The position numbers were made by a program, and so were the translations under genes. The notes under the pieces were generated by a model that ran no database searches, was not told the origin of the DNA, and worked only from the letters and a program-made list of their open reading frames with translations. A stretch of 64,000 nt of DNA from Callorhinchus milii. Its lineage: Eukaryota. Location: the NCBI RefSeq assembly GCF_018977255.1, contig NW_024704742.1, forward strand, positions 98,892,001-98,956,000, given 5' to 3'. Of the stretch, positions 1 to 63,932 are shown piece by piece (position 1 is the stretch's first letter; each line of letters starts with the position of its first letter).

Positions 1-31
1 ACTCTCTGATGAATTTGAGGATGAAGATGAA
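1..31 (-). CDS. TMC2: TMC2-like coding exon 4, partial (SSSSSNSSES...)
   Basis: Acceptor tttcctcttttgcag at 32-33, phase 2, Ser-rich start parallel to TMC1 exon 4. Confidence 0.7.
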
Positions 32-62400: not shown

Positions 62401-63932
62401 CAATATGTGAAACCTGTTGTAGATTAACCATTGATTCTGTTTAATAATATATTTCATAGGTGAAGGATGCTATATAAATGCAAGTTGTTTCTGTGATTAC
62501 ATATAGGCAACAGTTAATCAACTTAGTTTCTGAAAATCTTACTTCAAAATAAGTTTCAAGTGAGGCTTATTTTTAGCCCTGAGGAAGTGAGGATTGTGAT
62601 GTTTGAGTGTATGTGGCTTAAGTACATCCCTCTTAGGACTTCACTGTAGCTCAATTTGCAGTTCATTCCTTGTGACGTTAACCTATTTTATGAGATTGTC
62701 ACACAAGAACATTTGTTGTGAGGGAAATTTCCTACTCAAATGATTTTAGCTTTTCTCGTAGAGGTTGATAAGTGGTCAATGAAGATTGACCGTTCTCAAG
62801 AGAACGCATTGGTAATCCATCCATTTCTTGGCATCCCCCTATCTCTCCAACCTCCTCTCTCCCCACAGCAGTACCCGCTGCCTCCACTCTACTGGGTCCA
62901 GCCCCTCCTTGTCCCCTGAATCCTCCGCACCACCATCAGTGACCGTGCCTTCAACCACTATGCCCCAAAACTTTGGAACTCTCTCCCTCAACCCTTTCGC
63001 CTCGCCCCCTCCTTTCCCATCTTCAGGTCGTGCCTGAAGACCTTCCTCTTTGACCGCGCATACGGTGACCTTCCCCCTCGCCCTGGCTCGGTCTCAGGCT
63101 CCGCCATTATTAAGCGCTCTGAGACGCCTCGCAGTGTGGAGGGCACTATATAAATGCAAGTTGTTGTGGTTGTTGTTGTAATACACCAACCAAAGGGGAG
63201 GGGCATGGAAGGAGGGAATCGCTGGTTAAATATTCTGCAAGACTTTCCTTTGTGGGCTAGTGACTGTTCTCCAGGAGAGTTCCTTGTCTGAAGGATGGTT
63301 AAACATTCTCCAGAAAATACCTTAAGTGCTCAGTGATAAGTTATCTGGAGTAGCAAGTTAGCCATATATATGTATACTTTTTTTCATCAATAAATGTAAC
63401 CGAGATATTGACATCATGATGACAAGTGATCCTGACAAGTTAAACCAGGGTCGACTTACTAGGAGTTTACTGTACGACGACTGTGTTTTTAAAAATAAAG
63501 GAGAAAAATGGAACAATCCTGTTTCACTTGGGGTGAAGTCAAATTTAGCTACTCTCCAAGACAACTGCCTGGTGATCCGATGGCTAAGAGGAAATGTAAT
63601 GGTTCTCCGGAAGACTTCACAAGTGCTCCAATGTTAGTTTCAGCAGAGGAGAATTCCATAACATTACTAATGTTGAAGCTAAGCCTGACTCACACAAATT
63701 AAAACAATTCTTTTAAAAAAATGACAGCAAACACAATTAAGGCGGCAAAAAAAGGTTTAGCAATCAAACAAAGCAATCAAACCGTAGCTTAATTTTAAGA
63801 AGTGGACTGAACTGCATGATTTACTTTTGAACACAATCAACTTATTTTTGAAAAAGCTTATTTTAAAACACATTTCATAAGTGATCCATTACCATCACTT
63901 TCCTTGGCAATCAGTTTTTGATGTCGTGGCAT
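17200..63932 (-). CDS. TMC1: Transmembrane channel-like protein 1 (hair-cell mechanotransduction channel), whole gene model: 20 coding exons, 2949 nt, 982 aa
   Basis: Exons join in frame from [19 protein letters not shown] to a TGA at 17200. Contains the TMC signature [13 protein letters not shown]...[26 protein letters not shown]1-type segments are [23 protein letters not shown] and [14 protein letters not shown]2, as I recall it, has EVEIVM...CPPLFE and RGSCWETAVG. The N-terminus resembles my recollection of zebrafish Tmc1. Confidence 0.9.
18922..19066 (-). CDS. TMC1: TMC1 coding exon 19 ([19 protein letters not shown]...GNSRNLK)
   Basis: 145 nt, aaacag/gtatgg; QxxENKxRNK resembles the TMC1 C-terminal start. 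Confidence 0.82.
19889..20035. mobile_element. Second Penelope-like fold-back fragment with decayed hammerhead motif
   Basis: Homologous to 40755..40977; minus strand CTGACGAAAGGTCATCGACTTCAAACGTTAAC; TGGTTCTA on both flanks. Confidence 0.65.
20391..20469 (-). CDS. TMC1: TMC1 coding exon 18 ([26 protein letters not shown])
   Basis: 79 nt, ctgcag acceptor, non-canonical AAC|gcaagt donor required for a phase-0 join to exon 19. Confidence 0.9.
21459..21584 (-). CDS. TMC1: TMC1 coding exon 17 ([42 protein letters not shown])
   Basis: 126 nt, ttacag/gtaagt. Confidence 0.95.
22033..22362 (+). mobile_element. Full-length SINE (same family) with an 18-bp tandem duplication of the head
   Basis: gtggagtcctgtagctca twice, then a body nearly identical to 27745..28056. 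Confidence 0.9.
22897..23136 (-). CDS. TMC1: TMC1 coding exon 16 ([10 protein letters not shown]...[10 protein letters not shown]...[10 protein letters not shown])
   Basis: 240 nt, ttttag/gtgaat; ORF 22893..23135. Confidence 0.97.
24516..24583 (-). CDS. TMC1: TMC1 coding exon 15 ([23 protein letters not shown])
   Basis: 68 nt, accag/gtagg; pore Asp in EFDIS. Confidence 0.97.
24709..24837 (-). CDS. TMC1: TMC1 coding exon 14 ([43 protein letters not shown])
   Basis: 129 nt, cacag/gtgagt; TMC domain. Confidence 0.97.
27137..27292 (-). CDS. TMC1: TMC1 coding exon 13 ([16 protein letters not shown]...[17 protein letters not shown])
   Basis: 156 nt, tttcag/gtattt. Confidence 0.96.
27399..27578 (-). 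CDS. TMC1: TMC1 coding exon 12 ([17 protein letters not shown]...[26 protein letters not shown])
   Basis: 180 nt, tattag acceptor, non-canonical AAG|gcaagc donor; contains the Met equivalent to the Beethoven site (GMFCP). Confidence 0.95.
27745..28056 (+). mobile_element. Full-length tRNA-derived SINE with L2-type 3' tail
   Basis: A-box TAGCTCAGTGG, B-box GAGTTCAATTC, tail gggacgtcctcccgacgtgaaaagcgctatatcaaatgcaaggattattatta; many copies in the window. Confidence 0.9.
30665..30995 (-). mobile_element. L2 3' fragment
   Basis: [19 protein letters not shown] remnant and tail. Confidence 0.8.
31034..31228 (-). CDS. TMC1: TMC1 coding exon 11 (ESILEEQE...LRVLANF...WWERNE)
   Basis: 195 nt, acag/gttagt; ORF 31022..31249. 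Confidence 0.96.
31997..32141 (-). CDS. TMC1: TMC1 coding exon 10 ([48 protein letters not shown])
   Basis: 145 nt, tctcag/gtagaa; ORF 31943..32140. Confidence 0.96.
33868..34250 (+). mobile_element. CR1 LINE 3' fragment; others at ~14290-14580, 20105-20370, 32350-32790, 33090-33330, 45320-45540, 51170-51375
   Basis: [17 protein letters not shown] CR1 ORF2 end and CR1 3' UTR motif ggtcaaatggcct. Confidence 0.75.
34512..36078. repeat. Diverged direct duplication, ~350 bp (34512-34876 / 35741-36078)
   Basis: Shared blocks such as attatcaggtttatttccctttcaccta and caaccttgtgtttctggtga. Confidence 0.9.
37000..37202. repeat. GA-rich low-complexity / degenerate minisatellite (gagtcagagag-like units)
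   Basis: Seen directly. Confidence 0.8.
37998..38140 (-). CDS. TMC1: TMC1 coding exon 9 ([47 protein letters not shown])
   Basis: 143 nt, gctag/gtaagt; SVLFYGYY motif. Confidence 0.96.
38221..39581 (-). mobile_element. Degenerate L2 LINE 3' fragment, interrupted by a second L2 fragment
   Basis: Collinear with 5000-6160 of the young copy; ORFs 38573..38827 and 38725..39105 ([10 protein letters not shown]). Confidence 0.9.
39118..39474 (+). mobile_element. L2 3' fragment nested in the opposite orientation
   Basis: L2 tail ccttgggacgtcctcctgacgtgaaaggcgct; ATTGAC repeated at 39112-39117 and 39475-39480. Confidence 0.85.
40755..40977. mobile_element. Penelope-like non-autonomous fold-back element with hammerhead motif
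   Basis: Two inverted arms; exact 13-bp TSD AATGATCACTACA at 40742-40754 and 40978-40990. Confidence 0.7.
40840..40882 (-). ncRNA. Minimal type I hammerhead ribozyme motif (probably degenerate)
   Basis: GUGAGUU-CUGACGA-A-AGUUC-AUC-GACCU-GAAA-CA-UU-AACUCAC: 7-bp stem I, both core motifs, stem II with one mismatch. Confidence 0.6.
42151..42249 (-). CDS. TMC1: TMC1 coding exon 8 ([33 protein letters not shown])
   Basis: 99 nt, tttag/gtaagt. Confidence 0.95.
43735..43841 (-). CDS. TMC1: TMC1 coding exon 7 ([35 protein letters not shown], first TM segment)
   Basis: 107 nt, accag/gtaagt; in ORF 43678..43884. Confidence 0.96.
44764..44845 (-). CDS. TMC1: TMC1 coding exon 6 ([27 protein letters not shown])
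   Basis: 82 nt, ttcag/gtagg. Confidence 0.95.
45932..46022 (-). CDS. TMC1: TMC1 coding exon 5 ([30 protein letters not shown])
   Basis: 91 nt, ag/gtaagt, EGALGKG motif. Confidence 0.95.
49245..49633 (+). mobile_element. L2 3' fragment
   Basis: Matches the 3' end and tail of the young L2, ends in (TTG)n. Confidence 0.85.
50665..50808 (-). CDS. TMC1: TMC1 coding exon 4 ([48 protein letters not shown])
   Basis: actttcag acceptor, AA|gtaagt donor, 144 nt; typical TMC1/2 N-terminal helix. Confidence 0.92.
54367..54808 (-). CDS. TMC1: TMC1 coding exon 3, Lys/Glu-rich N-terminal region
   Basis: Lies in the frame of ORF 54363..54791; acceptor cattttcatttaag, donor AG|gtagg; 442 nt, phase 1-2. An in-frame alternative acceptor 15 nt downstream (54793) is possible. 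Confidence 0.85.
54990..55207 (+). mobile_element. Internal L2 RT fragment
   Basis: [13 protein letters not shown]...[15 protein letters not shown], homologous to 5840-6055. Confidence 0.85.
56082..56150 (-). CDS. TMC1: TMC1 coding exon 2 ([23 protein letters not shown])
   Basis: ttcccaacag acceptor, G|gtgag donor, 69 nt, phase 1-1. Confidence 0.8.
56660..57070 (+). mobile_element. Deu-domain SINE (SacSINE1/AmnSINE1-like); related fragments at ~15240-15545, 33372-33660, 35270-35600, 46845-47085
   Basis: Motif ...cttttggatgagatattaaaccaaggcccc...ggtggacattaaagatcctttggcactattt resembles the DeuSINE central domain as I recall it. Confidence 0.65.
57458..57702 (-). mobile_element. SINE with tRNA-like head
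   Basis: Minus strand gtcctgtagcgtattggttagagcactcgc...ggttcgattcc. Confidence 0.82.
59715..59930 (-). mobile_element. 5'-truncated SINE
   Basis: Body and tail of the same family. Confidence 0.85.
62826..63180 (+). mobile_element. L2 3' fragment
   Basis: L2 3' end and tail ...ctatataaatgcaagttgttg. Confidence 0.82.
63893..63932 (-). CDS. TMC1: TMC1 coding exon 1 ([13 protein letters not shown])
   Basis: ATG at 63932, donor G|gtaatg, phase 1 joins exon 2 to give DVSIEVD. Confidence 0.8.

Follow-up and report, generated by a model that had tools for sequence, protein, structure and literature searches.

The window analysed here, a stretch of 64,000 nt containing zero N, comes from the elephant shark, Callorhinchus milii, in keeping with the cartilaginous-fish genome that an earlier sequence-only reading had suspected. 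TMC1 and TMC2 lie in it on the same strand, head to tail, and the upstream gene is complete, as had been claimed:

17200..63932, minus strand: coding region of TMC1 in 20 exons, from the ATG at 63932 to the end of the stop at 17200
63932-63893, 56150-56082, 54808-54367, 50808-50665, 46022-45932, minus strand: TMC1 exons 1-5
44845-44764, 43841-43735, 42249-42151, 38140-37998, 32141-31997, minus strand: TMC1 exons 6-10
31228-31034, 27578-27399, 27292-27137, 24837-24709, 24583-24516, minus strand: TMC1 exons 11-15
23136-22897, 21584-21459, 20469-20391, 19066-18922, 17468-17200, minus strand: TMC1 exons 16-20
16193..17199, minus strand: TMC1 3′ UTR of about 1 kb, set by contig ends and the AATAAA at 16215

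Spliced together, these exons encode a protein identical to RefSeq XP_007897552.1 (982 aa), with AG at every acceptor and 17 GT plus 2 GC donors; a de novo exon scan of the window recovered just part of the exons. The protein has a long proline-rich tail and a full PF07810 profile at residues 624-739 (E 1.9e-37), with the CWET motif beginning at 624. Contigs were taken from runs X1-X4, presumed to be RNA, and all statements on them refer to the matches listed, which are crowded by repeats. Among the contigs listed, one of run X3 joined 18922 to 17468, and at the 3′ end an X2 contig stopped at 16201 and an X4 contig at 16193; the AATAAA at 16215 is the sole copy within 2.5 kb of the stop.

The ATG of a co-oriented gene follows 12,666 bp after this stop, matching the 12.7 kb first estimated, and about 11.5 kb separates the two genes. 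This part of the window holds the following features:

5147..7558, minus strand: LINE-type retroelement fragment, an 803-codon open frame between TMC1 and TMC2
4489..4709, minus strand: TMC2 exon 1, with the ATG at 4534, a 5′ UTR extending to 4709 or further and a phase 1 donor after 4489
3558..3605, minus strand: TMC2 exon 2, 48 nt, phase 1 to phase 1, AG/GT, RefSeq match
743..1223, minus strand: TMC2 exon 3, 481 nt, phase 1 to phase 2, charged low-complexity N-terminal tail
1..31, minus strand: first part of TMC2 exon 4, with a serine run, acceptor before 31, the gene running past the window end

The coding exons of the downstream gene (4534-4489, 3605-3558, 1223-743 and 31 to the window end) have AG/GT splice sites and translate to residues 1-202 of XP_007897575.1 (202/202 identical), exon 1 encoding residues 1-15. 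Exon 3 is 100% identical to C. milii TMC2 and 37-55% identical to six elasmobranch TMC2 entries, and a peptide similar to that of exon 2 occurs in Stegostoma TMC2. The gene had been described as nearly invisible among the ORFs; it is not hidden, since RefSeq already annotates it as TMC2. A TMC domain, whose lack downstream was to count against the pair, is present in the RefSeq protein (964 aa; full PF07810 profile at 631-746, E 2.1e-33; CWET at 631), from which it was read because its coding part lies outside the window. RefSeq joins the window exons to those of the TMC domain; on the contig side, what is seen is exits at the 4489 and 743 donors only. Among the contigs listed, one of X3 spans 4709-4489 and departs from the genome precisely at the exon 1 donor, and one of X1 begins precisely at the 743 donor and carries 245 further letters. 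Another X1 contig ends at 1229, not at the 1223 acceptor of exon 3.

Between the two genes, the retroelement is the only frame recognised as coding among 43 long ORFs of the window, short frames not having each been searched. It encodes a reverse transcriptase domain (PF00078 RVT_1, E 1e-36), attracts very deep coverage from repeats in the runs and ends some 440 bp before the most distal 5′ end observed for TMC2. TMC1 and TMC2 each have their own transcript, with a separate TMC1 3′ end and a separate TMC2 5′ exon. An additional read-through mRNA, from which TMC1 exon 20 and TMC2 exon 1 would be skipped and which would encode a covalent TMC1-TMC2 tandem channel, is compatible with the phases, as phase 1 is found both at the end of TMC1 exon 19 and at the start of TMC2 exon 2, and the join is free of stops. 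Moreover, three ray-finned fish database models are fused, and in the two from teleosts the TMC1 tail meets an exon-2-like peptide at the fusion point. On the other hand, the sole listed contig over the exon 19 donor (X3) takes the normal last exon, TMC1 terminates at a 3′ end with an AATAAA of its own, and TMC2 begins with a separate spliced exon. Fused models are also a usual error of gene predictors, which commonly merge tandem paralogs, and the read-through product is regarded as very improbable.

The first exons of both genes are alike in the way originally pointed out. Exons 1-3 end in phases 1, 1 and 2 in TMC1 (exon 4 starting in phase 2) and likewise in TMC2, exon 3 is 78% purine and K/E/N-rich in each, and exon 4 begins with a serine run in both. 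This comparison of intron structure covers the first three phases, the remaining TMC2 introns being outside the window, and a three-phase match alone is weak; the identity of TMC2 is settled by its exact agreement with a TMC-domain protein of full length. The SLLGMF, CWET and EFDISGNV-region family motifs are common to the C. milii, bird and mammal proteins. A crude hydropathy scan gave 7 segments in each C. milii protein, mostly in matching places, for a family that has about ten transmembrane helices and amphipathic pore helices, and a PDB search returned just C. elegans-length TMC-1 and TMC-2 chains.

Orthology was addressed with a tree of 52 rows built by a quick method with SH-aLRT support, whose named proteins comprise neither mammalian, frog or lungfish TMC1 nor cyclostome sequences. 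C. milii TMC1 is sister to three elasmobranch TMC1 (99) inside a TMC1 group (81), and its core is 86.4% identical to duck TMC1 vs 72.2% to duck TMC2. C. milii TMC2 is sister to elasmobranch TMC2 (100), within a single TMC2 group (99) of 19 labelled rows that follows species order and includes lungfish, amphibian, reptile, bird and mammal (Nannospalax) TMC2. At 18 diagnostic columns, trained on 19 TMC1 and 21 TMC2 rows with C. milii excluded, the downstream gene is TMC2-type at 18/18 and the upstream gene TMC1-type at 16/18, positions 350 and 352 being TMC2-type. These data assign, on sequence grounds, the upstream gene to TMC1 and the downstream gene to TMC2 as an ordinary ortholog, in agreement with its initial description as TMC2-like. 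A third paralog of the TMC1/2 kind, present in cartilaginous fishes and lost in tetrapods, had been offered as an alternative, and the 76.5% core identity of C. milii TMC2 to duck TMC2 is indeed lower than the value between the TMC1 orthologs. The gene and its elasmobranch sisters nevertheless fall with all bony-vertebrate TMC2, and all the diagnostic sites are of the TMC2 type. The proposal, to which we give a next to negligible probability, was rejected, as the C. milii gene belongs with the TMC2 of tetrapods, mammals included.

The two TMC2-type residues, both in TMC1 exon 8, are too few to call gene conversion. Conversion between TMC1 and TMC2 was rejected at the protein level, with 1-2 lineage-type vs 28-31 paralog-type columns. 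Identity between the paralogs is 72-75% in species where they are linked and 74% where they are not. The locus is made up of two genes, both ordinary and intact, which would code for mechanotransduction channels of hair cells, the channel role being taken from the family.

Linkage was judged from the equal length of the sequence records bearing each gene, which indicates a same chromosome and not adjacency. By this measure, TMC1 and TMC2 share a chromosome in 7/7 non-tetrapod species (C. milii, Stegostoma, Leucoraja, Scyliorhinus torazame, Erpetoichthys, Polypterus and Latimeria) and in 0/14 tetrapods, where unequal lengths may reflect different assemblies. The latter comprise 1 alligator, 1 salamander and, for the remaining 12, birds and turtles, and so amount to one event; the salamander assembly may split chromosomes into pieces. 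Eight further tetrapods (Emydura, Neopsephotus, Pezoporus wallicus, Pygoscelis, Nyctibius, Eudromia, Tricholaema and Dryobates) were excluded from the count for having one gene on a short scaffold or in another assembly, and none of them has equal lengths. Adjacency is directly seen in the C. milii window only, where the genes carry consecutive catalogue numbers (P014071 and P014072) on the same 139,202,109-bp sequence; the coelacanth proteins, from an old assembly, carry the distant numbers P026993 and P010625. In the fused database models of the sturgeon Acipenser sinensis and the teleosts Channa argus and Lepidogalaxias, TMC1 precedes TMC2, which gives order and strand, yet these models might span other genes. 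In the two teleost models the tmc1 neighbour falls within the tmc2b clade (99/100), apart from zebrafish Tmc2a, and the vicinity of zebrafish tmc1 and tmc2a named in the earlier reading is probably wrong. Since the tandem layout is common to C. milii and ray-finned fishes, it is older than the shark/bony fish split, which supports the age first proposed, and the pair looks ancestral for jawed vertebrates.

These observations are very probably explained by a tandem duplication in stem gnathostomes and a relocation of TMC2 around the time when tetrapods arose, the C. milii locus being an ordinary tmc1->tmc2 locus. A single Tmc1/2 gene would have been copied in tandem in the jawed-vertebrate stem, and TMC1 and TMC2 would therefore not be a whole-genome-duplication pair. 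The tandem would have been kept in cartilaginous and ray-finned fishes, and probably in the coelacanth, with TMC2 changing chromosome once the coelacanth lineage had branched off, most likely along the tetrapod stem. Teleosts would carry the tandem as tmc1-tmc2b, and their tmc2a would be without a tmc1 neighbour.

As for its timing, a single cyclostome Tmc12 and a TMC1/TMC2 split in stem gnathostomes were described by Erives and Fritzsch in the available part of PMC7003098, which corresponds to the same event and date as inferred here. That date, after cyclostomes and before gnathostomes, would fit the second vertebrate genome duplication too, in which case TMC1 and TMC2 would be ohnologs juxtaposed by a later rearrangement and tetrapods, with the genes on different chromosomes, would keep the original separation. 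The co-oriented TMC1->TMC2 junction must then still form, either in stem gnathostomes or in chimaera and ray-fins independently, and the coelacanth, closer to tetrapods, has both genes on one chromosome. Ohnologs are expected on different chromosomes within paralogous blocks, and in none of the 7 non-tetrapods do the genes occupy different chromosomes; this origin is considered highly improbable. Also improbable, if by a shade less so, is a tandem copy older than the cyclostome split with loss of one copy in lampreys and hagfish. The tree, having no named cyclostome row, would accommodate it; in the available part of PMC7003098, cyclostomes branch before the Tmc12 duplication. Of the 150 representatives, 11 were looked up by name and 2 were already named, and these yielded no TMC1 sequence from lamprey, hagfish or lungfish. 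With no cyclostome sequence placed in the tree, the lower time bound is that of PMC7003098 alone. The favoured tandem origin adds to that work the way in which the gene was duplicated and the subsequent parting of the copies, the words 'tandem' and 'synteny' being missing from the available main text. No earlier report of either was found in a literature search that missed some key papers. The timing of the duplication is already published and both C. milii genes are already annotated, and in themselves these genes are routine; what the locus would give is the origin mode of two hearing-channel pore subunits, a local copy and not a genome duplication, with their separation dated to about the move onto land.

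A further idea, tentative and rather unlikely in our view, is that the linkage has a function: hair-cell enhancers would be shared by tmc1 and the gene next to it downstream, and a departing TMC2 would gain its own control, as may have happened twice (teleost tmc2a and tetrapod TMC2). If so, the tetrapod move would have permitted the TMC2-to-TMC1 switch in the maturing cochlea. The expression zones of the zebrafish ear in the available text of PMC10682102, with tmc2a alone in central hair cells and tmc1/tmc2b marking peripheral cells, speak for it together with the tmc2b-type neighbour of tmc1. Against it, tmc2b is strong and tmc1 barely detected in the lateral line (PMC5740173, available part), tmc1, tmc2a and tmc2b all overlap early, and genomes that rearrange slowly may have kept the genes linked through inertia. 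The choice of tmc subunits by hair-cell subtypes is called an outstanding question in the same part of PMC10682102, for which linked vs unlinked tmc copies would be a natural experiment.

In comparison with known systems, RefSeq tmc1 and tmc2 of C. milii do not differ in protein from the window genes, whereas the UniRef representative A0A4W3IRS3 lacks the first three TMC1 exons and ends in intron sequence (20056-19928), and A0A4W3IRV3 lacks TMC2 exons 1-2. The C. milii pair has PF07810, the family motifs and tree orthology in common with the vertebrate TMC1/TMC2 hair-cell channels, a family of dimeric, mechanically gated cation channels according to the available parts of PMC11709434 and PMC10682102. 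Its TMC1 has 982 aa, and human TMC1 is modelled to residue 760 in the former. Teleosts carry two TMC2 copies, and zebrafish tmc2a and tmc2b are both on chromosome 5, about 39.9 cM apart (PMC5740173, available part). The TMC1->TMC2 order is retained in the Channa and Lepidogalaxias models, with a tmc2b-type neighbour of tmc1. The genes adjoin in C. milii but are separate in tetrapods. Adjoining TMC paralogs are a known pattern of the family, as in TMC6/TMC8 at human 17q25 and TMC5/TMC7 at 16p, which, unlike TMC1/TMC2, are still linked in mammals.

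A single Tmc1/2 gene was very probably copied in tandem in stem gnathostomes, and the resulting pair would have been retained in fishes, whereas TMC2 would have moved elsewhere on the lineage leading to tetrapods. The neighbouring TMC1 and TMC2-like genes described in the sequence-only reading are real and were correctly read, since their exons reproduce RefSeq TMC1 and the N-terminus of RefSeq TMC2 exactly, and both genes are already annotated. By analogy with the TMC family, both would function as channels. The window has no N and a G+C content of ~38%, and comprises the following elements.

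63932 to 17200, minus strand: 20 TMC1 exons, with RefSeq XP_007897552.1 (982 aa) as their exact translation
TMC1 stop to TMC2 ATG, 12,666 bp: spacer with repeats and the next element
5147-7558: LINE-type fragment with an unbroken 803-codon reverse-transcriptase frame, its end lying ~440 bp upstream of the RNA-supported 5' end of TMC2
Downstream, minus strand: four TMC2 exons, exactly translated into residues 1-202 of RefSeq XP_007897575.1 (964 aa)

The four downstream exons show AG/GT sites and phases 1,1,2, as in TMC1 exons 1-3; XP_007897575.1 contains a full TMC domain, and both RefSeq proteins lie on one 139,202,109-bp sequence. A protein search with the exon at 23135-22899 (79 residues) placed a Callorhinchus milii TMC protein first with 100% identity, ahead of proteins annotated as TMC1 from bichir, coelacanth, sharks and reptiles, among the best 120 of 899 matches listed. 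GC donors occur in TMC1 at introns 12 and 18 of 19 (27399 and 20391), and shorter, degraded copies of the LINE-type element lie inside TMC1 introns (e.g. 38255-39138, 49231-49578).

Contigs of four sequencing runs, presumed to be RNA, were mapped on window positions 1-20000. One of them joins 18922 directly to 17468 with the last TMC1 intron removed, and therefore represents spliced RNA, while contig ends at 16193 and 16201 fall just beyond an AATAAA at 16215. A contig over 4709-4489 follows the genome as far as the first TMC2 donor, where it diverges precisely and continues for 98 letters; another starts precisely at the TMC2 donor at 743 and carries 245 letters more. For both, the partner side is absent among the alignments listed, and one more contig ends at 1229 instead of at the TMC2 acceptor at 1223. 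The picture is that of two separate transcription units ~11.5 kb apart. A read-through TMC1-TMC2 fusion transcript would join both genes in frame, but the sole contig listed across the 18922 donor takes the normal last exon, and such a transcript is highly improbable. The UniRef model A0A4W3IRS3 lacks exons 1-3 and 19-20 and takes a repeat-like intron stretch (20056-19928) as its last exon; it is the RefSeq ending that is supported by RNA.

The identity of both genes was addressed with a quick IQ-TREE analysis covering 52 rows (13 TMC1, 19 TMC2, 4 outgroups, 12 further representatives and 4 halves of fused models), free of cyclostome rows and of mammalian TMC1. The downstream gene falls in a single TMC2 group (SH-aLRT 99) that also holds TMC2 from elasmobranchs, ray-fins, coelacanth, lungfish, amphibians, reptiles, birds and mole-rat, and the upstream gene in a single TMC1 group (SH-aLRT 81). 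Among 18 columns separating 19 TMC1 from 21 TMC2 proteins, TMC2-type residues occupy 18/18 in the downstream protein and TMC1-type residues 16/18 in the upstream one. The third paralog offered as an alternative in the sequence-only reading is rejected by group and sites alike, with a negligible probability left. The sole two differing sites, positions 350 and 352 in exon 8 of C. milii TMC1 (42249-42151), are TMC2-type, through either a short conversion tract or convergence. The paralogs show no protein-level sign of gene conversion (28-31 paralog-type vs 1-2 lineage-type columns), and TMC1-TMC2 identity does not differ between species with the genes linked and those with them apart.

A similar proline-rich motif closes both C. 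milii paralogs (56% over 39 residues, E 4e-6), at 17379-17263 in the TMC1 last exon and at the end of TMC2, and could be a binding site. It recurs in TMC1 and/or TMC2 of shark, coelacanth, bichir, gar, turtle and bird; a strict pattern finds it in 11/97 and 47/119 long proteins, counts that miss variants and include many truncated models. Human TMC1, modelled to residue 760 in the accessible text of PMC11709434, may have lost this tail, because it ends near that residue.

Chromosome sharing was inferred from the length of the sequence listed with each protein, equality to the base being taken as shared, for TMC1/TMC2 species pairs chosen by eye. Among the matches listed, lengths were equal in 7/7 non-tetrapods (C. 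milii, Stegostoma, Leucoraja, Scyliorhinus torazame, Erpetoichthys, Polypterus and Latimeria), a sharing of chromosome that does not amount to adjacency, and in 0/14 tetrapods (1 salamander, 1 alligator, 5 birds, 7 turtles), which amount to one event. Eight scaffold-level species, none with equal lengths, were excluded from the tetrapod count, and the salamander pair is weak, as its assembly may split chromosomes. Most birds and all turtles show large differences (e.g. 86 vs 170 Mb, 135 vs 300 Mb). Human TMC1 and TMC2 map to 9q21 and 20p13, and a literature search for the 20p13 locus gave no match. Xenopus TMC2 lies on a 154,486,312-bp sequence, which we take to correspond to the large bird chromosome with TMC2; if this is right, the move would date to the tetrapod stem. 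That the two genes are instead ohnologs, brought together later, is very unlikely. TMC1-TMC2 linkage is visible in any genome browser, and the evolutionary outcome of the locus, tidy as it is, may be little noted.

In this regard, the accessible text of PMC7003098 places the TMC1/TMC2 split in stem gnathostomes, with a single cyclostome Tmc12, as repeated in that of PMC9060560; an older copy, lost in cyclostomes, is quite unlikely. The words 'tandem' and 'synteny' are absent from the main text of PMC7003098, Tmc1 serves as a synteny marker for Aldh1a1 in PMC10879103, and the linkage is unmentioned in the accessible parts of PMC7817542, PMC10746142, PMC11709434, PMC12428828 and PMC13069148. No statement of a tandem origin was found in the literature searched, partly available as it was; Keresztes 2003, Kurima 2003, Maeda 2014, Chen 2020, Smith 2020 and supplements may note linkage.

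A second indirect line on the age of the tandem comes from three database models (Acipenser sinensis P0128, Channa argus P0134, Lepidogalaxias P0142) that fuse both genes with TMC1 first; two carry the name TMC1, and the fusions are probably annotation errors. The Acipenser and Channa halves were placed in the expected groups of the 52-row tree. A careful 27-row tree, from a set without zebrafish Tmc2b, puts the TMC2 halves of Channa and Lepidogalaxias (the latter covering just 13% of columns) with five proteins named 2B in one clade (99/100), separate from the clade with zebrafish Tmc2a E7FFT2 (100/99). The sequence-only reading, in naming tmc2a as the zebrafish neighbour of tmc1, therefore probably confused it with tmc2b, which for zebrafish itself we infer. 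According to the available portions of PMC5740173 and PMC10682102, zebrafish tmc2a and tmc2b lie ~39.9 cM apart on chromosome 5 and are termed ohnologs, respectively; ohnologs ~40 cM apart on one chromosome require a later fusion or move. A testable though rather unlikely idea is that linked tmc1 and TMC2 share hair-cell enhancers, the departed copies (teleost tmc2a, tetrapod TMC2) gaining their own control. In zebrafish, the same portions describe strong tmc2b and weak tmc1 expression in the lateral line (PMC5740173), and central zones expressing tmc2a alone as opposed to peripheral zones expressing tmc1/2b (PMC10682102).
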